Below the pieces are notes generated by a model. It searched no databases. It saw only the letters and a list, made by a program, of their open reading frames with translations, and was not told the DNA's origin. A stretch of DNA of 64,000 nucleotides. Origin: an uncultured Candidatus Saccharibacteria bacterium. Its GTDB lineage: Bacteria > Patescibacteriota > Minisyncoccia > Phycocordibacterales > SBAW01. This document shows positions 6,412 to 58,465 of the stretch, one piece after another; within the stretch, counting starts at the first letter, position 1; the number at the start of each line of letters is the position of its first letter. The stretch covers positions 475,099 through 539,098 of the forward strand of contig CAZYUH010000001.1 in NCBI GenBank assembly GCA_964650645.1, read 5' to 3'. Position numbers and translations under genes: made by a program.

Positions 6412-8484
<2,073 letters not shown>

Positions 8485-8592
8485 CTCCGTAAAAGCAAGC
8501 GTTCCGGAGTGCGGGAATTTTTTGCTAAAAATTCCCTAACCTCGATTCCGTCGAATCTACGGACACTCCGGAACGCTTGCTTTTGCTCCGTA
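8485..8592. repeat. MITE-like palindromic element: 21-bp near-perfect terminal inverted repeats (AAAAGCAAGCGTTCCGGAGTG / CACTCCGGAACGCTTGCTTTT) flanked by direct CTCCGTA, with a nested 10-bp hairpin
   Basis: Seen directly: arms at 8491-8512 and 8564-8584, direct CTCCGTA at 8485-8491 and 8586-8592, inner GGGAATTTTT-tgct-AAAAATTCCC hairpin; begins right after the gyrB stop codon. Confidence 0.5.
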
Positions 8593-8594
8593 CC

Positions 8595-8627
8595 AAAAAA
8601 CTCCCCGGATATTCCGGGGAGTTTTTT
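8595..8627. terminator. bidirectional terminator (A6-CTCCCCGG-atat-CCGGGGAG-T6)
   Basis: Perfect hairpin flanked by an A-tract and a T-tract between gyrB (+) and the CARDB gene (-). Confidence 0.75.
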
Positions 8628-8654: not shown

Positions 8655-9620
8655 CTAGAACACCTGGTAGGTCGTAACCGCGGTGTTGTTGTAGTCGCTC
8701 GACTCCTGCACCTGGTTCATGGGGTCGACCTCGATGGTCGCCTGGGCCTGGCCGCCGTAGTAGCCGCCCTGCGCCGGCACGACGTCGTAGCCGAGCGTGT
8801 AGACTATCCTGTCGCCCGGGTAGAGCATCTGCTGGCCGCCCGAAGGATAGACGTAGAGGGGCTGGTAGGGAAGCACGGCGTTGAAGGTCCAGCCCGCGGG
8901 CGCCGCGTTGGTGCCGATGTTGGTGATGACGAACTGGAGGCTGATGCGCGAGCCCGCCTGCGCCTGCGTCGGAGCGGCGGTAATCTGCACCGCGAGGTCG
9001 GGCGCGCCGTAAAGATTCTGGGTGCGGCCCGACGGGACGTAAGTCGTCGCGGGCTTGGCGGGCGTCACCGGCTTTGCAGCGGGGGCGGCCGGCTTGGGCT
9101 CGGCGGGCGCGGCCGGGGCGGCTGCGGGCGTGGTGCTCGCGCTCACGGTCGTCTTCGCCGTCCCTTTTACCGCTATGGTGCCGTCGGAGAGGCGGGTCGC
9201 GGCGACGGTAAGCGTGGTCGACGCCTCCTTAACGCCCGGCGCGAGCACGGGGATTATCGGCATGGACGAGGTCGCGTTCACGTAATTGAACGGCGTGTCG
9301 CACTTCACGAGCTGGAAGGCGCCGGTAGGGACGGGCGCGGCGAACGCGAGGCCCGGGGAGCAGGCGTAGGAAACGGCGTACGAGTACTCGCCGTCCTTGC
9401 CCGCATGCTTCCATGAAAGAGGGAACGCCTTGTCGGATACCGACTGCGCGGGGGCGGACGCGGTCAGGGTCTCCTTGGTCTGGCCGATGGAGCCGAAGAA
9501 CGTGGGGAGGTAGAACGCGAGCTGGATAATGCCCCATGCGCCCAGCAATAAAATAGCTATCAGGCCGATGACGGCTATGACGCGCAGGAAGTTCTCCCGG
9601 AACGTAGGTGTGGGTGCCAT
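8655..9620 (-). CDS. membrane-anchored surface protein with Pro/Ala/Thr-rich linker and C-terminal CARDB-like domain
   Basis: Internal ATG 9620 (MAPTPTFRENFLRVIAVIGLIAILLLGAWG signal anchor); linker AAPAAPAEPKPAAPAAKPVTPAKP; C-terminal pattern DLAVQITAAP...ITNIGTNAAP...EVDPMNQVQESSDYNNTA resembles CARDB. Confidence 0.55.
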   Translation of the reverse strand: MAPTPTFRENFLRVIAVIGLIAILLLGAWGIIQLAFYLPTFFGSIGQTKETLTASAPAQSVSDKAFPLSWKHAGKDGEYSYAVSYACSPGLAFAAPVPTGAFQLVKCDTPFNYVNATSSMPIIPVLAPGVKEASTTLTVAATRLSDGTIAVKGTAKTTVSASTTPAAAPAAPAEPKPAAPAAKPVTPAKPATTYVPSGRTQNLYGAPDLAVQITAAPTQAQAGSRISLQFVITNIGTNAAPAGWTFNAVLPYQPLYVYPSGGQQMLYPGDRIVYTLGYDVVPAQGGYYGGQAQATIEVDPMNQVQESSDYNNTAVTTYQVF

Positions 9621-9695
9621 GGGCGGCACTGTAGCATGGCCGTATGCTCTTGTCAATAATCGTAAAAAGTGGTATAACGCTGGTACACACACCGT

Positions 9696-10292
9696 ATGCG
9701 CGCCCTCGCTTTCGCCGCCACCTTCATATGCTTCTTCTTCATGACCTACGCCTTTCTGGGGCTGGTCGACGCCCTGCCTAATCCGCCGGAGTCTGCTGAC
9801 ACCGCGTCGCGCGAGCCTGCCAGCGCGCCGGAGCCTGTCGCGCAGGATGCGCGCGAATTGCCGGTGCGCGTCGTGGTAAAGGACGCGGGCATAGACTCCA
9901 AGGTGCTCAACCCGGCCTCGACCGACCTCGATACGCTTAACGCCGCAGTGGACGAGGCGGCGATGCGCTGGCCCACCTCGGGCCTGCTTGGCCAGAACGG
10001 CACCGTGGCGCTCTTCGGCCACTCGTCGCATTTGCCGGTGGTCTACAACCAGGCGTACAAGACGTTCAACGGGATAGAGCACCTCAAGAAGGGCCAGATC
10101 GTGAGCGTCTATTCGGGCACGGCCGAATACCGCTACGCGGTTACGGGCGTGCGCGTCGCCAGCGCCGAGGAGGACGTCGTCGAGCTTCCGTCCGACGGGA
10201 AGCACCTCGTGCTCATCACCTGCGACAATTTCGGCAGCAAGTCCGACCGCTATGTCGTGACCGCGGATTTCCAGGGCGCGTACGCCCTTTAG
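9696..10292 (+). CDS. sortase-family transpeptidase
   Basis: N-terminal TM; catalytic-triad context ALFGHSS (His), LVLITCDNF (TLxTC Cys), downstream Arg (DRYVVTA); divergent from the CARDB gene. Confidence 0.7.
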   Translation: MRALAFAATFICFFFMTYAFLGLVDALPNPPESADTASREPASAPEPVAQDARELPVRVVVKDAGIDSKVLNPASTDLDTLNAAVDEAAMRWPTSGLLGQNGTVALFGHSSHLPVVYNQAYKTFNGIEHLKKGQIVSVYSGTAEYRYAVTGVRVASAEEDVVELPSDGKHLVLITCDNFGSKSDRYVVTADFQGAYAL

Positions 10293-10334
10293 GCTCTTAA
10301 AATAAGGACATTTTAATCGTCCTGTAGCAAGATA

Positions 10335-10363
10335 TTGACAAAAGGGGTCTAAGGTGATATACT
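10335..10363 (+). promoter_or_regulatory. consensus sigma70 promoter TTGACA-17-TATACT
   Basis: TTGACA 10335-10340, TATACT 10358-10363; about 160 nt upstream of the 10527 ATG. Confidence 0.7.
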
Positions 10364-10423
10364 CAACCTAATACTGCTCTTGGGGATTTTGGGGAGCACG
10401 CGTTGTAGGGGAGCGTTTGGACG

Positions 10424-10489
10424 GCTGGCAAGCCGTACAGGCGCTTTCCTGTAATGGGAAATGCGCCTTGCCGCGGGGCTTAGCCGCGG
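10424..10489 (+). promoter_or_regulatory. structured 5'-leader element related to the 28257 and 53983 repeats (GGCAAGC...GCTTGCC outer stem enclosing a CTTTCC-loop-GGAAA hairpin, then a CCGCGG hairpin)
   Basis: CTGGCAAGCCGTACAGGCGCTTTCCTGTAATGGGAAATGCGCCTTGCCG matches the core of elements A and B. Confidence 0.4.
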
Positions 10490-10526
10490 ATGAATCAGTA
10501 CTTCAACTCAAAAATAGGAGGGCCGC

Positions 10527-12305
10527 ATGGCCAAGCCAATCTACGTAAATGCGAAAGGTCAGCGCGTCGCTGAGGCTGATTCGGGCCAGTGGAGGGAAGT
10601 AAACGCTGCGGGCGAGCCGAAAGGCCCGTTCGCGGATTCTCCATTCAAGCATGGAGCCAATCCCCAGCCTGAATCATCGCCAGCTGCGCGAGCGGATGTG
10701 CCGGACGAAATCCGGCGCGTCGCTTCCGAGCTGGAATCGCTCAAAGCAAAGCTTAACGCCTTGCAGGAGTCGAAACCGGATCGCGGCCAGCTCAACCGGG
10801 CTGTCGAGGAGCTAGTAAGCCTCGCCAAGCAGGTGGGTGAACTGCGTGTCGCCTTTGGCGGCGCGGAACAGATCGAAGCGTTCGTTAAGAGCGTTGGCGA
10901 TCTGGCCGGGCAAATCCAAGAGCTGGACAAGCGCATCAACCAAGTCAGTGACAAGGTGGATGCCACTGCCGATACTCTCAATGAGGCCGGCAGAGGGGTA
11001 GTCGATCGCTTCAAGGCGGTTGAAGCCCGCATCAAGGAGCTCGAAAGCCGTCCGGCTGAAACCGTAGAACCTTCCAATCCTCACCCCCATACATCATCGC
11101 CCCGCGATGATGCGGGGCAAAAGAAGGAGGAGGCAATGCCTCAGACTGAGAATCGAACTGAGACGACGTCTAATTCCCAAGCTTCGCAACCGCCTCGCGG
11201 CGATGCGGGGCAAAAGGAGAAGTTCATGTCATCCTTCAGGTCTAATCCTATCGCGGTTTTCGGAGCTGCGGCGGTCGTTGCTTTCCTTGGCTGGTTGGTA
11301 TTCGGCTTCAGTCATGCGCCGCAGAAGGTAACGACCGCACTGGGCACCGTCGATAACGGCTCTGCCGTTGTTGCCGAGACCCCGGCCCAGCGCGACCGCC
11401 GCTTCGCGGAGATCGCGGGAGCGACCTTCGACCAGCGCATCCAGCCGATCGACAGGGACCTGGAGAAGCTCAAGTCAAAGACTGACGGCTTGACCAGCAA
11501 CCTTTCCGACCTGGGCACCCAGGTTGCCAAGGTTGAAAAGAGCGTCGCGTCGGGCATCGAGAAGGTGATGGCCCAGCTGGAGAAGGTGGTAAACGCCAAG
11601 ACGTCGTCCGATACGGACGAGGTCGAGGCCAAGCGCCTTGCCCAGATTAAGGCAGAATGTTTGCCTGATTCGGAAACGACGAAGGGCTTGGACCTGAAGA
11701 AGGACCTGCCCGAAGAAACGTTCCAGTCTGTCTTGCGCATCTGCCGCGCGGAGAAAGAGGAGAAGATGCGCCAGGCTCAGACGCCTGTCGGGTCCCTTCC
11801 TTCGCCTCAGGCGCGGACGCTTCCCGCGTCCGTGAACGCGGCGGACCTTCCCGAGGCTGCGGATGATTCGTCATTCCAGCCGCAGGGTGCCGATGCATCC
11901 GGGGATGCGGGGGACGGACAGTCCGCCGCTTCCTTGGGAGGCGACGACCTGACGGGGCCCTACGACCCCCGGACGGCCAAGGCAATGTCACCAGGCGTTG
12001 CGCACGTTGCGCAGGCGGGGTACATGGGCCCGGGCGTCGGCGGCCCCGGATTCGGACCTGTAGGTCCCGGGTTCGGGCCTGGTCCCCGCGGCGGCCGTAT
12101 CAGCGGTCCTCGGTGTCCTCGCGGAAGCGCCTTCAATCCGCGGTACGGGAAGTGCATCGGAACCCGATTGCATGATTTACCCGTATCTCCCCAGATGGGG
12201 CAAATACTCAGCACGTGCAGGGATATTGTCACGCGCGAAGTGTGGAAGAACGGACACCTCACCCAGCAGCAGAAGGGAATCGGCTGCCGGCGTCCGGCCT
12301 ACTAA
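10527..12305 (+). CDS. bitopic coiled-coil membrane protein (592 aa), internal duplicated PRxDAGQK motif, Gly/Pro- and Cys-containing C-terminus
   Basis: AGGAGGG RBS 5 nt before the ATG; heptad-like segments on both sides of the single TM (AVFGAAAVVAFLGWLVFGF); no homolog recognised. Confidence 0.6.
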   Translation: MAKPIYVNAKGQRVAEADSGQWREVNAAGEPKGPFADSPFKHGANPQPESSPAARADVPDEIRRVASELESLKAKLNALQESKPDRGQLNRAVEELVSLAKQVGELRVAFGGAEQIEAFVKSVGDLAGQIQELDKRINQVSDKVDATADTLNEAGRGVVDRFKAVEARIKELESRPAETVEPSNPHPHTSSPRDDAGQKKEEAMPQTENRTETTSNSQASQPPRGDAGQKEKFMSSFRSNPIAVFGAAAVVAFLGWLVFGFSHAPQKVTTALGTVDNGSAVVAETPAQRDRRFAEIAGATFDQRIQPIDRDLEKLKSKTDGLTSNLSDLGTQVAKVEKSVASGIEKVMAQLEKVVNAKTSSDTDEVEAKRLAQIKAECLPDSETTKGLDLKKDLPEETFQSVLRICRAEKEEKMRQAQTPVGSLPSPQARTLPASVNAADLPEAADDSSFQPQGADASGDAGDGQSAASLGGDDLTGPYDPRTAKAMSPGVAHVAQAGYMGPGVGGPGFGPVGPGFGPGPRGGRISGPRCPRGSAFNPRYGKCIGTRLHDLPVSPQMGQILSTCRDIVTREVWKNGHLTQQQKGIGCRRPAY

Positions 12306-12307
12306 CA

Positions 12308-12372
12308 GCTACCTGGAGCGGTTCGCCGCTCCAGTTCGGGGCTACTGTTTAAGTAGCCCCTCATTCTCTGAG
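12308..12372 (+). terminator. double-hairpin terminator (CTGGAGCGG-ttcg-CCGCTCCAG; GGGGCTACT-gttta-AGTAGCCCC + T-rich)
   Basis: Two perfect 9-bp hairpins then tcattctct. Confidence 0.6.
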
Positions 12373-12405
12373 CTTAATCTAACAATTGAGCCCGGAGCGT
12401 GAGTA

Positions 12406-12434
12406 TTGACAGTATTATCAAGGTCTTGTAAGTT
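12406..12434 (+). promoter_or_regulatory. sigma70-type promoter TTGACA-17-TAAGTT
   Basis: The track start 12406 is the TTG of the -35 hexamer; the real ATG is 12463, preceded by AGGAG. Confidence 0.65.
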
Positions 12435-12462
12435 GCGTGCGTTTATTAGGAGCGAATATAAT

Positions 12463-13524
12463 ATGACTACCATTATAAAGAACATCATCGGTGCAGCGTT
12501 CGCGCTCATGGCGCTCGCCCTCCCGGTCGGTTCCGCTTTCGCGGCCGATCTTGACCTGGGTAGCTATGACACCGGCTGGTCGGATACGGGTTACTACGAT
12601 TCATACGATGCGTCGTACGACAGCTACTACGACACCGGCTGGACGGACACCGGCTACTACGATACGTACGATGCGTCGTACGATACCGGCTGGGTCGACA
12701 CCGGCTACTACGATACGTACGATGCGTCGTATGACACTGGCTGGGTCGACACCGGCTACTATGACACCTACTCTCCGTCGTACAGCACCGGCTACTCGAT
12801 GCCTTCCTTCGGCGGGATGTCCTTCGGCGGCTCCTCGTTCGGCGGCGGCTACGGCTACGGGATGCCTTCGTTCGGCACGCCCAACTACGCCTACCGCCAG
12901 GCCAACTACCCCCAGTTCCTGCCCCCGTCCAATACGGTAGTCGAGACCAACACCTGCACCGACAACTCCTGCAACTACGTCGACAACAGCATCGTCGACA
13001 ACAGCGTGGTGGACAACAGCGTCGTCGACAACAGCGTCACCATAGAGAACTCCTTCAACAACCAGGAGAAGAAGCGCGAGCGCCGCGACGACTACTGCTA
13101 CGACTACAACTACGGCAACCAGCAGGGCTACGGCCAGCAGGGCTACACCTACGGCTCGTACGCTTACCAGGGCAACTGCTACAGCTACGCCGCCCCGATA
13201 CCGCTGCCGCCGGTCAACACCACCCCGTACATCACGCTCTCGCAGACCCCGTACACCGGCCTCGACCTCGGGCCCTTCGGCGAGGTGCTCTACTGGACCT
13301 TCCTCGTCCTGTGGTGCCTGGGCGCCGCGTACCTGGTCGTCGTCAAGCGCGTCCAGAACAGGCTCGTCGGCTTCCTTAACGGCTTCCTGTTCGGCGGCGC
13401 ATCCGCCGCGGCCGCAGCGCCCGCTGCCCGCGCCGCTCACGCTCCGCAGGCTGCCGCAGCATCCGCTCCGCTCGTAGAAGAGGGCATCGACCCCTTCATC
13501 ATGAGCCAGATCAAGCGCTCCTAA
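12463..13524 (+). CDS. secreted Tyr/Asp/Gly/Thr-rich tandem-repeat protein with C-terminal TM segment
   Basis: Signal peptide MTTIIKNIIGAAFALMALALPVGSAFA; 4 x 17-aa repeats (YDTGWxDTGYYDTYDAS); VDNS pentapeptide repeats; GY/YG-rich tract; TPYTG + hydrophobic + KR near the C-terminus. Confidence 0.65.
   Translation: MTTIIKNIIGAAFALMALALPVGSAFAADLDLGSYDTGWSDTGYYDSYDASYDSYYDTGWTDTGYYDTYDASYDTGWVDTGYYDTYDASYDTGWVDTGYYDTYSPSYSTGYSMPSFGGMSFGGSSFGGGYGYGMPSFGTPNYAYRQANYPQFLPPSNTVVETNTCTDNSCNYVDNSIVDNSVVDNSVVDNSVTIENSFNNQEKKRERRDDYCYDYNYGNQQGYGQQGYTYGSYAYQGNCYSYAAPIPLPPVNTTPYITLSQTPYTGLDLGPFGEVLYWTFLVLWCLGAAYLVVVKRVQNRLVGFLNGFLFGGASAAAAAPAARAAHAPQAAAASAPLVEEGIDPFIMSQIKRS
12571..12780 (+). repeat. 4 x 51-nt tandem direct repeats, coding (inside CDS 12463..13524)
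   Basis: Units tacgatacgtacgatgcgtcgtacgataccggctgggtcgacaccggctac, nearly identical at 12655-12705 and 12706-12756. Confidence 0.8.
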
Positions 13525-13597
13525 TCCCTACAGGGAAGCGCCGTCCGCTAGTCCTAACGTGCAGCGAATCCACTGCATGGCGAGTGCCCCGAGAAAC

Positions 13598-13625
13598 CCC
13601 CGCCCACGGCGGGGGTTTCGCCTTA
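13598..13625 (+). terminator. intrinsic terminator (AAACCCCCGCC-cac-GGCGGGGGTTT)
   Basis: GC hairpin + T-tract after the CDS ending 13524. Confidence 0.7.
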
Positions 13626-13654
13626 TTGCTATCTTCATGCAAGTCGGCTATTAT
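13626..13654 (+). promoter_or_regulatory. sigma70-type promoter TTGCTA-17-TATTAT
   Basis: Upstream of the ATG 13685 (RBS GGAAAGAG). Confidence 0.55.
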
Positions 13655-13684
13655 GGCGGCCATTAGCAGGAAAGAGCATATTTT

Positions 13685-14131
13685 ATGAAGAACTACGCGG
13701 TTTCAGCGGCATCGGCGCTCGCGCTCGCAATGGCGGTACTGGCCCCCTCGTCCGCCCTGGCCTATTGCAACGGGGCGGGGAGCACGTGCGTCCAGAGCAA
13801 CGCCTACTCGAAGCCGTACTACAACAGCCAGTACGTGAACCCGAACGCGTTCGCGGGGCAGTACGGAGGCTACGGCTACGGCGGGTACGCGCCGTACGGC
13901 GGCTATGGCGGGTTCGGCGGCTACTACGGGCAGGGCTACGGGTACGGCTACCAGCAGCCCCTGTACTTCCCGGTCTACAACACGACCTTCCCGGGCTACT
14001 ACGGGTTCGGCGGCTACTACGGCCAGAACTACGGGTACAACAATTACGCCTACAACTACGGATACGACTACGGCTATAACTACGGGTACGACTACGGCGG
14101 GTACGACTACGCCTACGATTACTGGTACTAG
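13685..14131 (+). CDS. small secreted Gly/Tyr-rich low-complexity protein (148 aa)
   Basis: Signal peptide MKNYAVSAASALALAMAVLAPSSALA; remainder about 60% G/Y with GYGYG, YGGY and NYGY repeats; own promoter and terminator. Confidence 0.6.
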   Translation: MKNYAVSAASALALAMAVLAPSSALAYCNGAGSTCVQSNAYSKPYYNSQYVNPNAFAGQYGGYGYGGYAPYGGYGGFGGYYGQGYGYGYQQPLYFPVYNTTFPGYYGFGGYYGQNYGYNNYAYNYGYDYGYNYGYDYGGYDYAYDYWY

Positions 14132-14145
14132 GTAAAGCGCGCCGG

Positions 14146-14176
14146 TCGCAAAAACCCCCGCCACAAAGGCGGGGGT
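14146..14176. terminator. bidirectional terminator (A5-CCCCCGCC-acaaa-GGCGGGGG-T5)
   Basis: Between convergent 13685..14131 (+) and thrS (-). Confidence 0.75.
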
Positions 14177-14185
14177 TTTTCTGGC

Positions 14186-15394
14186 CTAGCTGCGGGTTTT
14201 TATCTCGTCCGCGAGCCTCGTGACGATGTCCTGTATGGGAAACGCGCCCAGCTTGCCCTCGCGGCCTTCAAGGGTGACGGTGCCGGAGGCGACCTCGGCA
14301 TCGCCTATGACCATGAGGTAGGGGACCTTCGCGGTTTTCGCGTTGCGTATCTTCTTGCCGAGGCTCTCGCTTGAATAGTCGGCTTCGGCGCGGATGCCGG
14401 CCTCGCGCAGGCGCTCGAGCGTGTCCTGCGCGAACGCGGCGTGCGCCTCGCCTATGGGGATGACGATGGCCTGCACCGGCGAGAGCCATGTGGGAAGGAT
14501 GCCGTCGAGGTGTTCGAGCAGCACCGCGATGCACCGCTCGAGGGAGCCGGTGATGGCCGAGTGGATCATGACGATGCGCTCCTTTTTTCCTTCTTCATTG
14601 ATGCACGCGAGGTCAAAGCGCTCGGGCTGGTTGAGGTCGAGCTGGATGGTGGCGACCTGCCACTCGCGGCCCGCGGCGTTCTTGGCCATGAAGTCGAGCT
14701 TGGGGCCGTAGAGCGCCGCCTCGCCCGGGCCCTCGAAGAAGTCCGCGCCGCGCTCCACCGCTATCTCGCGCAGGGCGCCTTCGGCGCTGTCCCACACCGC
14801 GGGCGTGCCTATGTATTTTTCCGGCGCCGACGGATCACGGAACGAGAGGCGCACGCGGAGCGTGAACCCGAACTGGCGGTAGAAGCGGTCCACGATGTCC
14901 CAGATCTTCAGGAACTCGTCCTTTATCTGCGACGTGCGGCAGAATACGTGGCTGTCGTCCTGCGTGATGGACAGCACGCGCGTGAGGCCGCCGAGCTCGC
15001 CGGACTGCTCGTCGCGGTAGACCATGGTGGTCTCGGCGTAGCGCTGGGGCATCTCGCGGTAGGAGTGCGGCCGGCGCGCGAATATCTGCGTGTGGTGCGG
15101 GCAGTTCATGGGCTTGAGCGCGTACTCCTTTCCCTCGCGCGAGGTGATGCGGAAGAGGTCGTCGGAGAACTTGTCCCAATGGCCGCTCGTCTCGTACAGG
15201 CTCTTTTTGGTGATGTGGGGGATGGTGACGCGGTCGTAGCCGTGCGCGTTGCGCAGTTCCCAGACGAAGCGGTCTATTTCCTCGCGCACCACGGTGCCCT
15301 TGGGGGTCCACAGCGGGAGCCCCGAGCCCACCAGGTCGCTGAACGTAAAAAGGTCGAGCTCGCGCCCGATGGTCCTGTGATCGCGTTCTTCCAT
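14186..15394 (-). CDS. thrS: threonine--tRNA ligase, catalytic + anticodon-binding domains only (402 aa; no TGS/editing domain)
   Basis: RDHRTIGRELDLF, class II motifs (FRITSREGKEYALKPMNCPHH, FCR...GELGGLTRV); C-terminal anticodon-binding fold. Confidence 0.9.
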   Translation of the reverse strand: MEERDHRTIGRELDLFTFSDLVGSGLPLWTPKGTVVREEIDRFVWELRNAHGYDRVTIPHITKKSLYETSGHWDKFSDDLFRITSREGKEYALKPMNCPHHTQIFARRPHSYREMPQRYAETTMVYRDEQSGELGGLTRVLSITQDDSHVFCRTSQIKDEFLKIWDIVDRFYRQFGFTLRVRLSFRDPSAPEKYIGTPAVWDSAEGALREIAVERGADFFEGPGEAALYGPKLDFMAKNAAGREWQVATIQLDLNQPERFDLACINEEGKKERIVMIHSAITGSLERCIAVLLEHLDGILPTWLSPVQAIVIPIGEAHAAFAQDTLERLREAGIRAEADYSSESLGKKIRNAKTAKVPYLMVIGDAEVASGTVTLEGREGKLGAFPIQDIVTRLADEIKTRS

Positions 15395-20641: not shown

Positions 20642-21562
20642 ATGGCCAACAGGCACCTCTCACGCTCAGTCGTTCTCCAGACACTCTTCGAGTGGGACTT
20701 CCGACATCTCTCGGCGGACGACTGCCTCGAATCCCTCGAGCGCATCGCGGAGGAGTCCGTGCCGCAGGGCGGCGACGCGCCGTTCATGGAGGACCTCCTG
20801 AGGGGCGTGCTCAGCCGCGCCGCGGACCTCGACATGGTCATAGGCAAGGCCGCGCCCGAGTGGCCCATTGACCGCATCGCGCCAGTTGACCGCAACGTCC
20901 TGCGCCTCGGGCTCTACGAGCTCCTGTTCGCCGACCGCGAGAAGGTTCCCGCAAAGGTCGCCATCAACGAGGCGATAGAGCTCGCCAAGAGCTTCGGCGG
21001 CGAGCATTCGGGCCGCTTCGTCAACGGGGTGCTCGGCGCCGTCTACAAGGAATTGGGCGAGCCGGGCAAGGACGAGGTGTCCAAGAAGAAGAAGGAGGTT
21101 CCGTGGGAGGAGATGCCGCAGGAGCGCCTGGTGGGCGCGGTCGTCTACGCCCGCTCGGGCAACGAGCTGTACCTCGCGCTGGTGCACGACATCTTCGGCC
21201 ACTGGACCCTCTCCAAGGGCAAGCTCACTCCCGATGAGACGCCGGAGGCCGGCGTGGTGCGCAAGATAAAGGAGGAGATAGGCTTGAATATCGAGCCCGA
21301 GCTGAGGCTGGGCGAGAACGAGTACGTCGCTTCCGACCCTGCGGCCGGCAAGAAGCGCAAGCACGTCATCTACTTCCTCGCGAAGTCGCCGTTCGCCGAG
21401 GTGGAGCTCGCTAAGAAGGGCGGCTTGGACGACGCGCGCTGGTTCAAGCTCCAGGACGCGCTCGAATTGAATTTTTACGAGGACATGCTTCCCATCGTCA
21501 TGAAGGCTGTCGAGCACCTCGGCGCCGATGCGAAAGGTAGAGCGAAGCTGAACGCTAATTAG
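20642..21562 (+). CDS. nusB: transcription antitermination factor NusB fused to a C-terminal NUDIX hydrolase domain (306 aa)
   Basis: N-terminal about 150 aa contains KVAINEAIELAKSFGGEHSGRFVNGVLGAV (NusB signature); C-terminal part has a Nudix box KGKLTPDETPEAGVVRKIKEEIGLNI and Nudix fold. Confidence 0.85.
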   Translation: MANRHLSRSVVLQTLFEWDFRHLSADDCLESLERIAEESVPQGGDAPFMEDLLRGVLSRAADLDMVIGKAAPEWPIDRIAPVDRNVLRLGLYELLFADREKVPAKVAINEAIELAKSFGGEHSGRFVNGVLGAVYKELGEPGKDEVSKKKKEVPWEEMPQERLVGAVVYARSGNELYLALVHDIFGHWTLSKGKLTPDETPEAGVVRKIKEEIGLNIEPELRLGENEYVASDPAAGKKRKHVIYFLAKSPFAEVELAKKGGLDDARWFKLQDALELNFYEDMLPIVMKAVEHLGADAKGRAKLNAN

Positions 21563-29978: not shown

Positions 29979-30255
29979 GAATAGCGAAACCAACGGGCAG
30001 GCCGCGGGGGCCATGAGTGAGTATCGAGTGGGGGTTTCGATACAACTAAAGAGGTGTGGATACTTTCACCTAAAGCTTCATAAGGAAGCAGGGGAGCCCT
30101 TTGGGCGACCCGGATTTTTCGTGTTTTGGCTGTGTGCATAAGTCAGTTGACTCCTAAGCATTTGTGCGAATAGCCATTGCCAGGAAAGAGAGAGGTGGGT
30201 GCGTCGGGCGCAGGTGCGGGTCCCTTTATCAACGTCCCTTCATCTTACAATCATC

Positions 30256-37107
<6,852 letters not shown>

Positions 37108-43485: not shown

Positions 43486-44262
43486 TTACTGCGTCTCCGG
43501 AGAGGAAGTGGGCTGGGGCGCGCCGGCCTCGACCGTGCCGCCCGCTGCCGAGCCGCCGGCCGGGGCGACGTCGGCGCCGCCCGGGACCGAGGAGAGGACC
43601 GCGTCAATGGCCGCGCGCATCGAGGAGTACGGCTGGGCGCCCGAGAGCGCTACCGCGTCCTCGCCGACCATGATGAGCGTGTAGGGCGTGCCCTGGCCGC
43701 CGGCCTTTATAGCCTCGTTGTAGCTGTCGGTAATCTTCTTGGTGAACTTGCCTGAAGAAAGGCAGGCGTTGAAGGTGTCGGTGTTAAGGCCGACCTGGCC
43801 CGCGATGACGGGGAGCTGTGCGAGGTCCAGCCCGTTATTGGACGGCGTTACCTCGAACAGCTTGCTGATGTAGGAGAAGTACGCCGTATCGCCGCCCTGG
43901 TCCGCCGCGCACTCGGCCGCCTCGGCTTCTTTAGGGGCCTTGGGGTGGATGGATGCGAGAGGGAAGGGGCGCAGGACCCATGCCACCTTGCCGGAAGGGC
44001 CGTAGTACTCCATTACCTGGTGCATGGTGGCATCGAAGAGCTTGCAGTGCTGGCACTCGAGGTCCATGTACTCGACGACCTTGACCGGCGCGTCCGGGTT
44101 GCCGAGGATGTGGTCCAGGGCAGGGTCGTAGGCGCGCACGTTCTGCGGGTTGTCGGTGTTGGACGGGGTGGCCGTGCCCGACTTGCCGGCCCAGAAGACC
44201 GCGCCCGCGATAACGAGCCCTGCGACGACGATGGTAATAGGCAGTGCGTAATTTCTGTTCAT
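43486..44262 (-). CDS. membrane-anchored DsbA-like thiol:disulfide oxidoreductase (CQHC)
   Basis: N-terminal TM, thioredoxin fold with a CxxC motif, Ala/Gly/Pro-rich C-terminal tail. Confidence 0.7.
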   Translation of the reverse strand: MNRNYALPITIVVAGLVIAGAVFWAGKSGTATPSNTDNPQNVRAYDPALDHILGNPDAPVKVVEYMDLECQHCKLFDATMHQVMEYYGPSGKVAWVLRPFPLASIHPKAPKEAEAAECAADQGGDTAYFSYISKLFEVTPSNNGLDLAQLPVIAGQVGLNTDTFNACLSSGKFTKKITDSYNEAIKAGGQGTPYTLIMVGEDAVALSGAQPYSSMRAAIDAVLSSVPGGADVAPAGGSAAGGTVEAGAPQPTSSPETQ

Positions 44263-53069: not shown

Positions 53070-53098
53070 TTGACAAATAGTTTTATAGGGTGTATAAT
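53070..53098 (+). promoter_or_regulatory. consensus promoter TTGACA-17-TATAAT
   Basis: Drives the small membrane gene at 53153; lies in an AT-richer patch (52880-53140). Confidence 0.65.
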
Positions 53099-54639: not shown

Positions 54640-55395
54640 TTACCGCAATAGGAACTCTATGAGCGTGGCGGTCTCCTGCGGGCTGAAGACCGGGTGGGCG
54701 CGCACGCCGGTCTTTACCACCACCGCGTCATTGCCGCCCTCTTCCAGGGCGTCGCCCACGTAGAGCATGTCTTTTGCGGGAATGCCCGAAATCTCGCTGA
54801 GGCGCTTGATGCCGTATGCCTTGTCTATGCCCTTGCGGGTGATGTCGACCGACGTCGAGCCGCCCGTGGCCACCGAGAACTCGGGGAGGCGCTTTTCAAC
54901 GGCCTCGCGCAGGACGCGGCGCTTCTCGCCCGAGGGGTCCCATTTGAGCTTCTCGTCGAGCGGCGCCTCCTGCCCCAGTCCCGAGAACACTATTTCCGCG
55001 CCGCGGTCCTCGATGCGCTCGCCCCATACGCGCTCCGGCTCCTGCGCGAGGCCGGCGTCTCCAAGCGCCTCCTTGAGCCCCGCGAGGATGCGCCCGCGCT
55101 CTTCTTCCGTAAAGGCGTAGTCGTAGTGCGGGTGCCACGAGCCTGTCTTGTGAACGAAGCACTGCGCCGCGTTGTCGGGAAAGAGGTAGAGGTTGCGCAG
55201 GGGCGCATCGTCGGAGAGCGCCGAGAGGAACTGCTTCTCGAACTGCGGGAAGCCGGCGCCGGACATGACGGCCACCGGCATCCTCGAAAGGAGGCGCGAT
55301 ACGAGCGCGCCCATTTCGGGGCTCAGCGGCTGCTTTGACTCGGCGAGCGTGCCGTCGAGGTCGAAGGCGACGAGTTTCGGGAGCGGCGTGGTCAT
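54640..55395 (-). CDS. HAD-superfamily hydrolase (subfamily IIB, Cof/phosphomannomutase-like)
   Basis: Internal ATG 55395 (MTTPLPKLVAFDLDGTLAESKQPL: DxDGT motif I); ...SGAGFP..., C-terminal GDALEEGGNDAVV (motif IV). ATGA overlap with the upstream GH130 gene. Confidence 0.72.
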   Translation of the reverse strand: MTTPLPKLVAFDLDGTLAESKQPLSPEMGALVSRLLSRMPVAVMSGAGFPQFEKQFLSALSDDAPLRNLYLFPDNAAQCFVHKTGSWHPHYDYAFTEEERGRILAGLKEALGDAGLAQEPERVWGERIEDRGAEIVFSGLGQEAPLDEKLKWDPSGEKRRVLREAVEKRLPEFSVATGGSTSVDITRKGIDKAYGIKRLSEISGIPAKDMLYVGDALEEGGNDAVVVKTGVRAHPVFSPQETATLIEFLLR

Positions 55396-57317
55396 GACAG
55401 GGTATCGGGCAGGAGTATCTTCAGGAGCTTCTTGAGCGACATCTTCGCGACGCCGATCACGGTGTCGGCACCGCCGTAGTATACAAGAAGCGTGTCGCCG
55501 CGCAGCACCGCCCCGCAGGAGAACACGACGTTGCGTATCTGGCCCACGCGCTCGTACTCCTCTATGGGCTCGAATATCGTGTCGACGCTGCGCGAGAGCA
55601 CGATGGCGGGGTTCTTGAGGTCCAGAAGCACCGCGCCCAGCCGGTAGGTGCTCGTCTTTGATACGCCGTGGTAGATGAGCAGCCAGCCCTTGGGGGTCTT
55701 TATAGGCGGCCCGGCGATGCCGACCTTCTTGGAGTCCCACATGCCGGCGCGCGGGCCCATGAGCTCGATGCAGCGCGTGAGCCTGCTCTTCTTGAAATCG
55801 AGCGTGTCGAGGAAGTCCGCGCAGATCATGGGGTCGATGCGGTGCATGAGCATGTACTGGCCGCCGACCTTCTCTTCAAGGAGGCACGTGTCCTTGTCCT
55901 GCACGTTGTCGGGCGTGACGAGCTGGGGCGCGCTCCACTTGTCGAAGCGCTTCGCGACGAAATCCTTCACTGAAATGCTCGAGAGCGCGGCGCGCCACGG
56001 GTCGGCGCCGTTGTAGGCGGTATAGGCGAGGTAGATGGTGTTGCCGATGCGGGTGAGCCGCGGGTCCTCGCAGCCCGAGCCCGAGCCGGGCGGCCCCTTC
56101 TTCATCTCGAACTCCTCGCGCGGCAGGTAGGCGGGCGTCGCCATGCGCTCCAGTATCTTCGTGCCGTTCTTGGTAGAGGCGTACCCGAGTACGGACGTGT
56201 TGTCGTCGCCGAGCGCCCGGTACAAAAGGTGCACGGTGCCGTCGATGTCTATCGCGGCCGCGTTGAAGACCGCCCGGTTCTCCCACGTATGCTCCGGCAC
56301 GGGGGAAAGGAGGGGGTTCTCCTTGGCCCTCTTGGCAAGCTCGACGCGGCGCGCGGGGATTATGGCCGAGAGGAGGTCGGGGAGGTTCACCGACGCGCGG
56401 GCGCATACGGTGTCGGCGCCTCCGTAGTAGATGTCCACGCGCCCGTTCTTTTCAATGAGCGCGCCGGTGGGGAAGACGATGTTGGGCACGATGCCGTAGC
56501 GCTCGTAGATCTCCTCGGGCACCATGATGGGGCCGCGCGTGGCGCCCGCTATCCGGTAAGGGTCGTTCAGGTCAAGGAGGAGCGCCTCGATGCCGAAGAC
56601 CCGCTCGCCGCCGCCGAAGTAGTTCTGTATGTAGGAATAGAACATGAGCCAGCCGTCCTTGGTCTTTATTGGCGCGGAGCCCACCTCGACGTGGTCGTGC
56701 TCGAAGCGCAGGGGGTTGATGACATGGTCGTCGAGGTTCGCGTGCCACTTCTCCCAGAAGGAGAGGTCCCACAGCTCCTCCATTTCGTCGCACTGGGCTA
56801 TGGCTATCTTGGCCGGCGGCTCGTCGGTGTGCGCGGTGAGGATGACGGTTATCTTGCCGTTGATACGCTCCGGGAAGAGCGCCATCGCCTTGGCGTTGAA
56901 CGGCGTGATGAGGTGGCGCTCCTCTATGGTCTCGAGGTCCTTTGAGATAGCGCATGCGACCTTGATGTTGCCCGGGCCGAACGGCATGCCGCCGAGCGCC
57001 GTGTAGAAGATATAGTACTTGCCCTCGAAGAACGTCGCGCGCGGGTCCTCGCAGCCGTACTTCTCCCAGGGCTCTTCCGGCACGATGAACTGCCGGCGGT
57101 TCTGGAAGTGGCGGCCGTCGAGCGTGAGCGCCTTGCCGATAGTCGAGACGCCGTCGGGCGCCATGAGCGCGTCGGGGCGCCCGAGCGCGCGGTACAGGAC
57201 GTGCGTGATTGCGCCCTTTTTTACGGGCGAGGGGTTGAAGGTGCCGTGCGCCTCCCATGGCTTGTCGCCGATGGGGGAGATGAGGGGGTTGTGGCCGCTG
57301 CGCTTGATAACGTACAT
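55392..57317 (-). CDS. tandem double GH130-family (DUF377) glycoside phosphorylase/hydrolase (two complete 5-bladed-propeller units in one 641-aa polypeptide)
   Basis: Each half carries GCEDPR(A/L) and YYGGADT signatures (YGCEDPRATFFEGKYYIFYTALG / VDIYYGGADTV; GSGCEDPRLTRIG / LLVYYGGADTV). Start at internal ATG 57317; the upstream part of the ORF is Arg-rich junk. Confidence 0.78.
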   Translation of the reverse strand: MYVIKRSGHNPLISPIGDKPWEAHGTFNPSPVKKGAITHVLYRALGRPDALMAPDGVSTIGKALTLDGRHFQNRRQFIVPEEPWEKYGCEDPRATFFEGKYYIFYTALGGMPFGPGNIKVACAISKDLETIEERHLITPFNAKAMALFPERINGKITVILTAHTDEPPAKIAIAQCDEMEELWDLSFWEKWHANLDDHVINPLRFEHDHVEVGSAPIKTKDGWLMFYSYIQNYFGGGERVFGIEALLLDLNDPYRIAGATRGPIMVPEEIYERYGIVPNIVFPTGALIEKNGRVDIYYGGADTVCARASVNLPDLLSAIIPARRVELAKRAKENPLLSPVPEHTWENRAVFNAAAIDIDGTVHLLYRALGDDNTSVLGYASTKNGTKILERMATPAYLPREEFEMKKGPPGSGSGCEDPRLTRIGNTIYLAYTAYNGADPWRAALSSISVKDFVAKRFDKWSAPQLVTPDNVQDKDTCLLEEKVGGQYMLMHRIDPMICADFLDTLDFKKSRLTRCIELMGPRAGMWDSKKVGIAGPPIKTPKGWLLIYHGVSKTSTYRLGAVLLDLKNPAIVLSRSVDTIFEPIEEYERVGQIRNVVFSCGAVLRGDTLLVYYGGADTVIGVAKMSLKKLLKILLPDTLS

Positions 57318-57331
57318 GCTCGTATTATATG

Positions 57332-58465
57332 TCAGGCTTTTACGGGCACGAGGTCCGCGCGCTGGCCGTGGGCCAGTTTCAGCAGGAAGTCGTCGAGATT
57401 GGCGCGCGCGGCGGCCACGTACTTGTCGCCGCCGCCGTAGTACACCAAGAGGTCCTCGCCGACGATGACCGCGCCCGAGACGTACACGACGCCGGGCTTC
57501 CAGTCGTTCTCGTACCACTCATCGGGCTCCAGCACGGGCTCCTTCGAGCGGTGCAGGATTTTCTTGGGGTTCTTGAGGTCAAGGAGCATCGCGCCCACCT
57601 TGTACTTGTGCGGCTCGCGCTCGTCTATGGCGTGGTAGAACAGGAGCCACCCGTCCTTGGTGCGAAGCGGCGGCGCGCCCGCGCCGCGCAGGCGGCTGTC
57701 CCACGCCTTGGGGCGCTGGGCGCGCTCGAAGCGGCTGCGTATGTAGGCGGAGTCGTTCGCGTCGCCCGGCTGTATGTAGGCGATCTGTATCTCGGGCTCC
57801 AGGTTGTGCAAGATGCCGTAGCGCCCGCGTATCTTCTCGGGGAAGAGCACCCAGTTCTTCTGCACCTCGCCGGGCGGCGAGAGGTACACGCCGCGCTCCC
57901 AATTGAAAAATCCCTGCTCGAGCTCGGTGAGCGGCAGGAAGGAGAGCATCATGCGCACGTTGCTCCATCCCTCGAACGAAGTGAACGTCATGCAGACGTG
58001 CCCGTCGATGACGACGGCGCGCGGGTCTTCCGTGCCGCCCCAGCCGCCGCCCGAGCCGTGCGTCGTGGTGTCGTAGGAGAGCGGCGCGTACTTCCTCGCA
58101 CCGCGCCGCGCGCGCTCCAGGCTCGCGGGCGACGGGTCGTAGGCGGGGGAGCTTGAGCGCGTAAAATGCACGCCGTCGTCGCTGTGCGCGTAGCCGATGC
58201 GCGATACGCCGTCCTGCCCTATGGCGCGGTACAGGAGGTGCACCTTGCCGCCGTGCACGAACGCCGCCGGGTTGAACACCGCCTCGGACTCCCACCAGTT
58301 CGCGGGATCGGGCGAAAGAACGGGGTTGTTTTCCGCGCGCTCGAGCCTGAGGCTGGGCTTGTAGGCGGCGTAGAGCCTGCCTAGGATATAGAAAACGGCC
58401 AACAGGCACGCAAAAAGAAGGGCGACGACGAGGAATGGGAGATACCAGGCGCTAAGCGCGTCCAT
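57332..58465 (-). CDS. GH130-family (DUF377) glycoside phosphorylase/hydrolase with N-terminal membrane anchor
   Basis: TM LPFLVVALLFACLLAVFYILG; GGTEDPRAVVIDG and LLVYYGGGDKYV signatures. Confidence 0.78.
   Translation of the reverse strand: MDALSAWYLPFLVVALLFACLLAVFYILGRLYAAYKPSLRLERAENNPVLSPDPANWWESEAVFNPAAFVHGGKVHLLYRAIGQDGVSRIGYAHSDDGVHFTRSSSPAYDPSPASLERARRGARKYAPLSYDTTTHGSGGGWGGTEDPRAVVIDGHVCMTFTSFEGWSNVRMMLSFLPLTELEQGFFNWERGVYLSPPGEVQKNWVLFPEKIRGRYGILHNLEPEIQIAYIQPGDANDSAYIRSRFERAQRPKAWDSRLRGAGAPPLRTKDGWLLFYHAIDEREPHKYKVGAMLLDLKNPKKILHRSKEPVLEPDEWYENDWKPGVVYVSGAVIVGEDLLVYYGGGDKYVAAARANLDDFLLKLAHGQRADLVPVKA

Follow-up and report, generated by a model that had tools for sequence, protein, structure and literature searches.

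Whether five adjacent genes for envelope proteins form one cell-surface system, and whether a sortase among them acts on its tyrosine-rich neighbor, is the question raised by positions 8655 to 14176 of the 64,000-nucleotide stretch of DNA analyzed here (the window). A first-pass annotation had proposed a five-gene module; its observations were confirmed in part and its interpretation was supported in part. Five open reading frames (g1 to g5; Table 1) are present in this region, and all five genes are real. Sequence analysis agrees with the earlier assignment of envelope or extracellular products to all of them, which are predicted to be membrane bound or secreted. The five genes are not a single unit, and the conserved core consists of g1, the sortase gene g2, and g4. 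We somewhat favor the view that the region is a conserved locus for cell-surface proteins in a Paceibacteria (Adlerbacteria-like) bacterium, a member of the candidate phyla radiation with a tiny genome, and that its core is a sortase with one dedicated substrate family. A role of the locus as an attachment or matrix system is conjecture.

Table 1. Features of the locus (positions in the window)
Feature	Positions	Strand	Description
Bidirectional hairpin terminator, gyrB (+)/g1 (-)	8595-8627	.	AAAAAACTCCCCGGATATTCCGGGGAGTTTTTT, perfect hairpin between A and T runs
g1	8655-9620	-	321 aa; hydrophobic anchor aa 7-42, PAxP linker, CARDB
Back-to-back promoters, g1 (-) and sortase (+)	9628-9678	both	Overlapping -35 boxes; pair conserved
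g2, sortase	9696-10292	+	198 aa; PF04203 Sortase, E = 1.2e-18
g3 promoter	10335-10363	+	TTGACA-17-TATACT, 11/12 positions matched
g3	10527-12305	+	592 aa; one TM segment, aa 239-264; subthreshold coiled-coil-type Pfam matches
Two terminator-like hairpins after g3	12313-12360	+	Intergenic fold; terminator-scan match 12328-12342
g4	12463-13524	+	353 aa; Y 12%, G 10%, D 8%, T 8%
g4 hypervariable tip	12564-12793	+	Tandem 51-bp (17-aa) repeats, DTGW-x-DTGYYDTYDASY
g4 second repeat array	12978-13038	+	15-bp period
g4 sorting-signal-like module	13216-13359	+	TPYITLSQ-TPYTG-LDLGPFGE, TM helix (VLYWTFLVLWCLGAAYLVVV), then KRVQN
g4 predicted cytoplasmic tail	13360-13524	+	Ala-rich linker, terminal IDPFIMSQIKRS motif
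Hairpin terminator after g4	13594-13618	+	AAACCCCCGCC-CAC-GGCGGGGGTTT
g5	13685-14131	+	148 aa; Y 26%, G 20%; signal-peptide-like segment ending ALA↓YC
Bidirectional hairpin terminator, g5 (+)/thrS (-)	14151-14181	.	AAAAACCCCCGCC-ACAAA-GGCGGGGGTTTTT

Homologs of the core genes are found by the hundred in Paceibacteria (Adlerbacteria, Kaiserbacteria, and Nomurabacteria), and the statement that the five products lack recognizable homologs was wrong for g1, g2, and g4. Synteny in relatives, whose absence had been named beforehand as a refutation, is clearly present. Co-occurrence in relatives extends to g1, the sortase, and g4; the remaining two genes do not follow, g3 being a species-level mosaic and g5 being seen in close relatives only. 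On sequence evidence, g3 and g5 are best described as lineage-specific surface proteins filling variable slots.

The mosaic nature of g3 is evident from its similarity to proteins at two other loci: residues 290 to 420 and 536 to 590 are 40% and 65% identical to a slot protein of L015, and residues 1 to 185 are 31% identical to a protein of L026; no g3 homolog was found in L007 to L010. Between strains, residues 521 to 592, a hypervariable C-terminal domain with four Cys, are 19 to 31% identical, versus 93 to 99% for residues 1 to 198 and 263 to 520. The protein had been described as a coiled-coil membrane protein; it has a single transmembrane (TM) segment, and Pfam matches of the coiled-coil type stay below threshold. 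By these data g3 is bitopic, and the charged regions that flank its TM segment are probably helical (of the coiled-coil type). The g5 product, a small Gly/Tyr-rich protein predicted to be secreted, can be aligned only with those of strains and of L007, a relative with 80% sortase identity, and indels distinguish the strains.

Each gene had also been credited with its own promoter and terminator. Promoter-like sites exceed expectation (5 found versus 1.4 expected) and most of the hairpins were seen, but the hairpin 3′ of the sortase gene is weak. The g1 promoter reads TTGACA-17-TACAGT on the minus strand (9656 to 9628), and the g1 ATG lies 7 nucleotides after the -10 box, so the g1 mRNA is leaderless. 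Manual reading gives TTGTCA-17-TGgTATAAC for the sortase promoter on the plus strand, and the -10 boxes of both promoters are conserved in L007 and L008. The g3 promoter is not the best in the window, as had been claimed, since two sites elsewhere match at 12/12 positions; both its -35 box and its GGTGATATACT -10 region are retained ahead of the L015 homolog of g3. An upstream TTG at 12406 was rejected as the start of g4 because it belongs to a TTGACA box; g4 starts instead with the ATG at 12463.

The earlier identification of g2 as a sortase holds, the PF04203 match passing its curated threshold. By sequence, g2 is a membrane-anchored sortase (cysteine transpeptidase) whose class is not assignable, as none of the NCBIfam sortase class models reaches its cutoff (class C, 23.5 versus 160 bits; class GN, 31 versus 158; class B, 10.8 versus 154). 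The triad H109, C176, and R185 is invariant across 39 homologs. Compared with solved structures, an AF2 model of g2 (pLDDT 87) finds sortases of classes A, D, and E at E values of about 1e-9 to 1e-10; class C structures are also among the matches and fit slightly less well. Homologs number 402, and those that are named belong to Adlerbacteria or Paceibacterota.

CARDB similarity of g1, claimed earlier together with anchor and PAxP linker, passes the curated Pfam threshold (E = 5.3e-7; 30.2 bits, cutoff 22.7). The AF2 model (pLDDT 85) contains a helix at residues 6 to 42 and beta-sandwiches at residues 50 to 159 and 190 to 319, the second of which matches the CARDB structure 3idu with a target-normalized TM-score of 0.79 to 0.81. 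The protein is predicted to be anchored in the membrane in type II orientation and to carry two beta-sandwich ectodomains: the N-terminal one is unnamed and has a conserved Cys pair, and the one after the PAxP linker is a CARDB domain. Homologs number 267, the TM helix is nearly invariant, and a g1 homolog lies upstream of the sortase gene on the opposite strand in 60 of 65 loci. It is proposed that g1 is a conserved accessory partner of the sortase.

The g4 product would be a secreted, Tyr/Asp/Gly/Thr-rich protein and, from its sequence, a candidate sortase substrate. It begins with a signal-peptide-like segment ending AFA↓AD, and a C-terminal TM segment is also predicted. Near the C-terminus, TPYTG, a hydrophobic helix, and KR occur as the first-pass annotation described; about 55 residues, which it did not stress, follow them. 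The C-terminal 108 residues match 497 representative clusters, always at the protein C-terminus. The consensus of this module is PY[VI][TS]L[SA]x[V/A/T]PYTG-L[DE]LGP, followed by a conserved TM helix and K[RK]VQN. PYTG, preceded by V/A/T/I/L, is invariant in 149/149 family representatives, among which L-4, Y+14, W+15, and Y+27 are at least 97% conserved. The hydrophobic helix starts 9 to 10 residues from xPxTG, is followed by K[RK], and is far more conserved than that of a generic sorting signal. In the main family, 40 to 140 residues (median, 91) follow TG and the tail ends in D-x-F-I-x-S-Q-I, with D.F[IVL].[SAQT]Q[ILV] within the last 25 residues in 140/149 members; such a long tail is not canonical for a sorting signal. 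Family members that were looked up are labeled "hypothetical protein" or are nameless, and the PYTG proteins make up a family of tyrosine-rich surface proteins that spans the lineage and had not been named before.

Ahead of the module, the predicted mature g4 protein (238 residues) is acidic, with 30 D/E versus 6 K/R and 39 Tyr, and the 40 residues upstream of the signal are rich in Y, P, T, V, and Q, like a wall-spanning segment. The 51-bp array of the tip (TRF period 51, 3.3 copies) overlaps a period-63 row. Residues 28 to 125 are 49 to 55% identical between strains whose gyrB, sortase, and thrS genes do not differ, whereas residues 126 to 353 are 100% identical, and this contrast argues for surface exposure of the tip. 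Since the PYTG signal is invariant, the sortase is a neighbor, and the tip differs between otherwise identical strains, g4 is probably the main wall-anchored surface fiber of the cell.

The suggested link between the g4 signal and the sortase receives strong comparative support from the invariant motif, from second paralogs in 15 sources, and from colocation in every adequately covered relative. A sortase (37 to 74% identity) is present in 53/53 GTDB species loci that were seeded with the PYTG gene and carry 5 kb or more of flanking sequence upstream, and a PYTG gene is present in 8/8 sortase-seeded loci of relatives, in addition to the window. Where gene order is rearranged (6 loci), the two genes still lie about 450 bp apart. 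Adjacency is nevertheless weaker evidence than it appears, because the entire region from gyrB to dnaE is syntenic in this lineage. In 15/85 sources there is a second local paralog that carries the module, and 10 of these 15 are short-tailed and lack the terminal motif while keeping PYTG, TM helix, and KR. In the five loci where second paralogs were read out in full, the ectodomain is different and Gly/Asp-rich, in several with CPxGTTGTYPNC repeats. In its behavior the module thus resembles a portable sorting signal for sortase.

Domains, motifs, sequence conservation, synteny, and variability between strains are observed; export, cleavage, wall attachment to an acceptor, and any intramembrane complex are inferred. 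The g4 protein would be exported via Sec by its signal peptide and retained in the membrane by its C-terminal helix together with K-R as stop-transfer residues. The neighboring sortase (His109/Cys176/Arg185) would cut at [V/T/A]PYT↓G, between Thr and Gly, and, by analogy with LPXTG proteins, transfer g4 to a cell wall amine. Mature g4 would then present a Tyr/Pro/Thr/Gln-rich wall-proximal stalk and a distal tandem-repeat tip that is swapped or diversified between strains, with g1 as accessory and g3 and g5 in the variable slots of the locus. The unusual conservation of the g4 TM helix and tail, which would stay behind in the membrane, is equaled in the TM helices of both g1 and the sortase and suggests that the three proteins may meet within the membrane.

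A dedicated pathway from sortase to PYTG substrate, with cleavage and wall anchoring of g4, is judged a little better than an even proposition. Counted against cleavage were the main-family tail of 41 to 140 residues, the overconserved TM helix, and the absence of an anchor-model match. The same features fit PYTG proteins that are stable, uncleaved type I membrane proteins, in which the PY..PYTG block, TM helix, and tail form an interaction domain, for instance coupling a fiber to a cytoplasmic or membrane partner, and the sortase is a neighbor only through synteny and serves substrates elsewhere. Greater conservation of helix and terminal motif than of the ectodomain is odd for a discarded segment, the tail is long, Pfam and NCBIfam LPXTG-anchor and other sorting-signal models give no match even at E ≤ 10, and gyrB, thrS, and dnaE are just as syntenic. 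Against this stand the short-tailed second paralogs, an invariant PYTG that shares P, T, and G with LPXTG and is spaced from the helix as in canonical signals, and a sortase adjacency that survives local rearrangement. Furthermore, no open reading frame with xPxT[GASN], TM helix, and basic residues other than the PYTG proteins was found in the 64-kb window or in 1.34 Mb of related loci, a search confined to this neighborhood. Stable retention in the membrane is considered clearly less likely than cleavage.

Still less probable is a sortase acting as polymerase or ligase that links PYTG proteins with one another or with g1 via Lys, in a pilus- or fiber-like polymer instead of or before anchoring. 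The constant company of g1 with its two Ig-like domains, a conserved Lys in NNQ-x-K among close relatives of g4, and the class C structures among the fold matches are compatible with polymerization. However, the g1 family has no invariant or nearly invariant Lys, g4-family ectodomains contain 1.1% Lys and no visible YPKN-like pilin motif, and the single sortase falls far below the class C cutoff and fits class A, D, and E structures slightly better. It is scarcely credible that g4 and g5 are not real genes or that the cluster is a chance juxtaposition without common function. Many spurious open reading frames arise in high-GC DNA, and g3 and g5 lack distant homologs, but the homologs of the g4 module hold a fixed position in protein and genome, GC3 of g4 and g5 (0.85 to 0.92) is like that of housekeeping genes, promoters and terminators flank each gene, and g5 is kept in L007.

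Compared with known systems, g2 resembles the housekeeping class A and class E sortases of Gram-positive bacteria in its N-terminal anchor, His-Cys-Arg triad, and sortase fold. The g4 protein resembles LPXTG/LAXTG substrates in its N-terminal signal peptide, C-terminal xPxTG, hydrophobic helix, and basic residues, and in the Pro/Tyr-rich stretch ahead of the motif. It differs from them in the [V/A/T/I/L]PYTG motif with its invariant Tyr and in almost invariant flanks (PYxxLSx...GL[DE]LGP) and TM helix. In canonical sorting signals, only a few basic residues follow the helix, whereas the main PYTG family continues into its tail with a conserved terminal motif. Unlike in class A/E systems, the enzyme scores under every class HMM cutoff and the signal has no anchor HMM match, and in the neighborhood loci searched one or two evident substrates lie beside the enzyme, whereas those of housekeeping sortases are many and dispersed. 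The g1 protein resembles CARDB surface proteins (PF07705; Pyrococcus PF1109, 3idu) in passing the CARDB threshold and in superposition (TM-score of about 0.8). Unlike PF1109-type proteins, it is short and membrane bound in type II orientation, with an extra domain, a near-invariant TM helix, and a fixed place beside a sortase.

Class B SrtB and IsdC (NPQTN), a haem-binding NEAT protein, form a dedicated sortase-substrate pair, and the class GN "marine" sortase (TIGR03784) is paired with one neighboring target. The g2 and g4 genes are like these pairs in placing a sortase next to one cognate substrate with a lineage-specific variant motif, an adjacency conserved across species. They are unlike them in the low class GN and class B scores of g2 and in the low-complexity, acidic, Tyr-rich repeats of g4, as opposed to haem-binding NEAT or VWA-type targets. 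In Streptococcus gordonii, C-terminal peptides released by sortase ("C-pep") are reportedly sensed inside the membrane. The g4 locus differs in having no sensor kinase, and the parallel is a lead only, offering a precedent for a function of the membrane remnant after sortase cleavage; a remnant with its own function would account for how strongly the g4 helix and tail are conserved.

The interval 8655-14176 contains five ORFs, with gyrB on one side and a short thrS on the other; dnaE comes after thrS (see table). The second ORF (g2) is a sortase, as indicated by its match to Pfam PF04203 (67.4 bits, cutoff 26.6; E = 1.2e-18) and by the catalytic residues H109 (FGHSS), C176 (LITCD; TxxTC-type) and R185, none of which varies across 39 aligned homologs. 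Four Phe residues of its TM helix are also invariant in the sortase family. Foldseek comparison of the AF2 model (pLDDT 87.1) with the PDB gave sortases A, D, E and C as best matches (E 3e-10 to 2.5e-8; target-normalised TM-score up to 0.79), with class A, D and E structures fitting about equally well, and among solved sequences Bacillus anthracis SrtA is nearest (2kw8, E = 1e-8). The class search proposed in the first-pass annotation placed g2 below the cutoff of every NCBIfam sortase model (score/cutoff: sortase_fam, 34.9/39.35; class GN, 31/158; class D, 29.1/165; class E, 24.4/160; class C, 23.5/160; class B, 10.8/154), and the enzyme fits no named sortase class. Named sources among the 402 sortase homologs are Candidatus Adlerbacteria, Paceibacterota or Patescibacteria, and 60 blocks of the assembly collection list a sortase identical to that of the window.

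Features of the five-gene interval, of the remainder of the window and of related loci
Feature	Position	Strand	Description
gyrB	6442-8484	+	
Inverted repeat	8491-8585		AAAAGCAAGCGTTCCGGAGTG ... CACTCCGGAACGCTTGCTTTT, around smaller hairpin
g1, CARDB-type membrane-anchored protein	8655-9620	-	321 aa; hydrophobic anchor aa 7-42
g2, sortase	9696-10292	+	198 aa; hydrophobic anchor aa 2-28
g3 leader	10370-10526	+	~157 nt, promoter to ATG
g3, bitopic coiled-coil-type protein	10527-12305	+	592 aa; single TM segment aa 239-264
g4, Tyr-rich PYTG-family protein	12463-13524	+	353 aa; signal-peptide-like N-terminus; second hydrophobic segment aa 274-298; Y 12%, G 10%
g5, small Gly/Tyr-rich secreted protein	13685-14131	+	148 aa; signal-peptide-like N-terminus; Y 26%, G 20%
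thrS	14186-15394	-	402 aa
NusB-NUDIX hydrolase domain fusion	20642-21562	+	306 aa
RNA polymerase ORF	30199-37107	+	2302 aa; beta domains aa 38-1066, beta-prime domains aa 1085-2187
12/12 promoter	38239-38211	-	TTGACA-17-TATAAT, TG before -10 box
DsbA/thioredoxin-like protein	43486-44262	-	
12/12 promoter	53070-53098	+	TTGACA-17-TATAAT, TG before -10 box
GH130 genes	55392-57518; 57332-58465	-; -	beta-mannoside phosphorylase-type
Histidine kinase	59129-60166		
GT4 glycosyltransferase	61979-63214		
Threonyl-tRNA synthetase of relative L010	10707-12518		603 aa
Second PYTG paralog, L034	12514-13365		Gly/Asp-rich stretch with CC(G)GGG motif
Second PYTG paralog, L043	12975-13913		Gly/Asp-rich stretch with CC(G)GGG motif
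Second PYTG paralog, L082	11133-12188		Gly/Asp-rich stretch with CC(G)GGG motif
Further second PYTG paralogs, L050, L059, L061, L062, L068, L088, L090			CC(G)GGG-bearing stretch

Four relatives (L007-L010; sortase identity 80%, 70%, 59% and 56%) share the order gyrB, g1 homolog (-), sortase (+), variable genes, Tyr-rich protein (+), thrS (-) and dnaE (-). Of the five genes proposed as a module, g1, g2 and g4 were recognisable in these relatives and g3 was not, and g5 was alignable in L007 only; BLAST of g3 and g5 against the four relatives found nothing. Scanning GTDB, one genome for each species, with the alignment of the g4 C-terminal module (PYTG motif, TM helix and basic residues) gave 224 relatives, from which the best 80 loci were taken. 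Every module-seeded locus with at least 5 kb upstream contained a sortase homolog (53/53; 37-74% identity). The sortase lies 1.9-8.7 kb upstream of the module on the same strand in 59 loci and starts ~450 bp downstream of it in 6 loci of changed order, and a g1 homolog is found upstream on the opposite strand in 60 of 65 loci. When loci were seeded with the sortase, a PYTG gene was the last before thrS in all eight relatives' loci examined and in the window. Adjacency is not independent evidence of function, since gyrB, thrS and dnaE are syntenic too. A search for other substrates (xPxT[GASN], hydrophobic helix and at least two basic residues) across 1.34 Mb, comprising the window and 84 loci, returned PYTG proteins only, and the 64-kb window has one match to the generic pattern of xPxT[GASN], helix and basic residues. 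The thrS product of the window and most relatives has only 402 aa, consists of the class II core and anticodon-binding domain and lacks the N-terminal portion present in L010.

The likely start of g4 is ATG 12463, with AGGAG ahead of it; the TTG at 12406, where the mechanically called ORF opens, belongs to a TTGACA box. Two tandem arrays lie within the gene, one with units of 51 bp (17 aa) and the other with units of 15 bp (VDNSx), and neither g4 nor g5 had a match in the Pfam scan. A word-indexed search with the C-terminal 136 aa of g4 gave only 3 fragment matches, and it took an exhaustive HMMER search to reveal the family, in which the last 108 residues matched 497 representative clusters (188 at E <= 1e-10), always C-terminally and in proteins of 130-680 aa. 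In the best 149 of the 497 representatives, the module consensus is P-Y-[VI]-[TS]-L-[SA]-x-[V 79% / A / T / I / L]-P-Y-T-G-L-[DE]-L-G-P-x-G-T-x-x-Y-W, continuing x-F-L-x-L-W-C-L-x-A-A-Y-L-I-x-V-K-[RK]-V-[QH]-N. The P, Y, T and G of PYTG are invariant among these representatives, and the motif, a candidate recognition site for this sortase, fits the xPxTG pattern. The helix begins ~10 residues past TG, and the basic residues K (94%) and R/K (98%) come after it, a feature of sorting signals. Between 41 and 140 residues follow TG (median 91), and 140 of the 149 representatives end in D-x-F-[IVL]-x-[SAQT]-Q-[ILV]. Family ectodomains are rich in T, S, Y, G, P and N, with K, R, E and L almost absent; at least three short acidic/aromatic tandem repeats directly follow the signal peptide in 79 of 120 full-length members, and the 40 residues N-terminal of the module are Y/P/T/V/Q-rich. 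NCBI labels of the members looked up are "hypothetical protein" or no name.

A second PYTG gene is present nearby in 15 of 85 sources. Its full ORF was read out in five loci, and there the ectodomain differs, being Gly/Asp-rich and in several of them containing CPxGTTGTYPNC repeats; in 10 of the 15 the tail is short, ending ~10-20 residues past the helix without the terminal motif. The different ectodomains and short tails are what would be expected of a portable sorting signal. Most second paralogs bearing CC(G)GGG also have tandem Cys-containing repeats (CP-x-GTTGTYPNC), and those bearing CC(G)GGG match no Pfam or NCBIfam family.

The CARDB-like domain proposed earlier for g1 was confirmed by Pfam PF07705 (aa 206-314, 30.2 bits against a cutoff of 22.7) and superposes on 3idu with a target-normalised TM-score of 0.79-0.81 (rmsd 3.0 A). 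In the g1 model (pLDDT 85), a long TM helix precedes a beta-sandwich that contains a conserved Cys pair, and a Pro/Ala/Thr linker, modelled as disordered, joins this sandwich to that of CARDB. Foldseek with the whole model matched mostly generic tandem Ig-like proteins (RbmA, integrins and antibodies) at low TM-scores; CARDB is the sole specific structural match of the predicted fold and yields no function. The TM helix is near-invariant among the 267 g1 homologs. As TM helices are strongly conserved in all three core proteins, this conservation suggests that the sortase, g1 and g4 may meet within the membrane.

It is somewhat more probable than not that a dedicated sortase cuts g4 at PYT|G and anchors it to the wall, with g1 as a conserved accessory and g3 and g5 as lineage-specific surface cargo. 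The long, conserved tail of the PYTG family and its over-conserved TM helix favour the main alternative, in which the module serves as an uncleaved membrane anchor and interaction domain, with the sortase a syntenic bystander. We consider this unlikely, given that short-tail paralogs exist and that xPxTG is invariant and correctly placed. Pilus-type polymerisation by the sortase is highly improbable, there being no conserved lysine: a non-exhaustive motif look noticed no pilin-motif lysine (YPKN-like) in g4-family ectodomains (1.1% Lys), and the g1 family alignment has no Lys among its invariant or nearly invariant columns. The chance that the locus is an artefact is negligible, conservation excluding it.

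A broader and rather improbable proposal is that the PYTG protein serves Paceibacteria as their main fibre for recognising hosts or partners and that sortase, g1 and the conserved membrane remnant form an intramembrane complex in which the remnant is functional. The strain-specific Tyr/Asp repeat tip would then set the cell or surface attached to, or the phage able to attach, and the cleaved remnant (helix and D-x-F-I-x-S-Q-I tail) would act, for example, in feedback signalling or in positioning wall anchoring. In a sortase system of this kind, the "discarded" propeptide would itself be a conserved product with a function.

From the sortase to the first PYTG gene downstream, the variable slot measures 0.6-4.0 kb and contains 1-5 ORFs. 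Most of their products have several Cys and either a signal peptide or a TM segment, and many have a charged helical stretch. Its occupants in the module-seeded loci include at least five patchy, recurrent families (in 14, 10, 9, 7 and 6 loci) of small proteins that contain Cys and are secreted or have a single TM segment, and one family has the 4-Cys C-terminal domain of g3. The g3 protein is a mosaic of slot-protein pieces; its Pfam matches were of coiled-coil type and below threshold, and similarity to it appeared in only a few of the 80 later loci. We considered whether g5 may be a second PYTG paralog, decayed and with its anchor lost; g5 occupies the slot of such paralogs and shares C-x-x-x-x-S-x-C and NTT motifs with them, in sequences of low complexity.

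Strains were compared using contigs from other samples whose gyrB and sortase are 100% identical to those of the window; thrS is also 100% identical in L001 and L002, and L004 spans 38% of it (97%). The g4 repeat tip (residues 28-125) has only 49-55% identity between strains, against 100% for residues 126-353, and the homogenised repeat unit is particular to each strain. Likewise, the 4-Cys domain of g3 (residues 521-592) has 19-31% identity, against 93-99% for aa 1-198 and 263-520; for the stretch that surrounds the TM segment (aa 199-262), identity is 65% (L001) and 100% (L004). g5 differs by indels. Replacement confined to these regions is consistent with exposed tips that experience diversifying pressure. 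A diversity-generating retroelement was set aside as the source of tip variation, which lies in tandem repeats with strain-specific homogenised units; the scan of 18 ORFs of the window found no reverse transcriptase.

More promoter-like sites were observed (5) than expected (1.4 +/- 1.1). The g1 promoter (TTGACA-17-TACAGT) ends 7 nt 5' of the ATG, so that the g1 mRNA would be leaderless, and its -35 box overlaps that of the sortase promoter on the opposite strand (TTGTCA-17-TGgTATAAC); the -10 boxes of both are kept in L007 and L008. The g3 promoter, kept upstream of the g3 homolog in L015, had been ranked best in the window in the first-pass annotation but scores 11/12, whereas two sigma-70 sites elsewhere score 12/12 and are the strongest consensus matches within the window. 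Its expectation of a strong terminator for each gene was borne out by clear hairpins after gyrB/g1, g3, g4 and g5/thrS, but only a weak one follows the sortase. An inverted repeat, long and near-perfect, sits directly 3' of gyrB and 5' of the bidirectional terminator. The g3 leader folds into long, stable hairpins, belongs to no Rfam family (a scan of the whole window gave nothing at gathering scores) and is mostly not present in the leader of the L015 homolog.

Elsewhere in the window, a single ORF with RNA polymerase beta domains followed by beta-prime domains appears to be an rpoB-rpoC fusion, and the NusB-NUDIX fusion is annotated in L092 too. An adjacent pair of GH130 genes has a histidine kinase and a GT4 glycosyltransferase nearby. 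The DsbA/thioredoxin-like protein would fit extracytoplasmic disulfide formation in the many Cys-containing secreted proteins of the locus.

More than half of candidate-phyla-radiation genomes are reported to encode sortases (PMC6744442). Full-text literature searches (sortase in Patescibacteria, Parcubacteria or the candidate phyla radiation; PYTG; LPXTG) found no description of substrates or of a PYTG signal. The locus provides a concrete sortase-substrate candidate for one large class, Paceibacteria, in an unannotated family with an invariant signal, adjacent to a sortase and with a distal tip replaced between otherwise identical strains. For organisms not yet cultivable, the PYTG motif is usable for annotation, the peptide is testable with recombinant sortase, and the surface protein is a possible antibody target with a candidate role in attachment or phage resistance. 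Comparison with Pfam and NCBIfam sorting-signal models gave no match for g4 at E <= 1, nor for the isolated module and short-tail paralogs at E <= 10. LPXTG sorting signals (PF00746/TIGR01167) end soon after the basic residues, whereas the main PYTG family does not. The proposed PYTG system would operate much as known ones do, but the architecture of its signal is distinct and lineage-wide.
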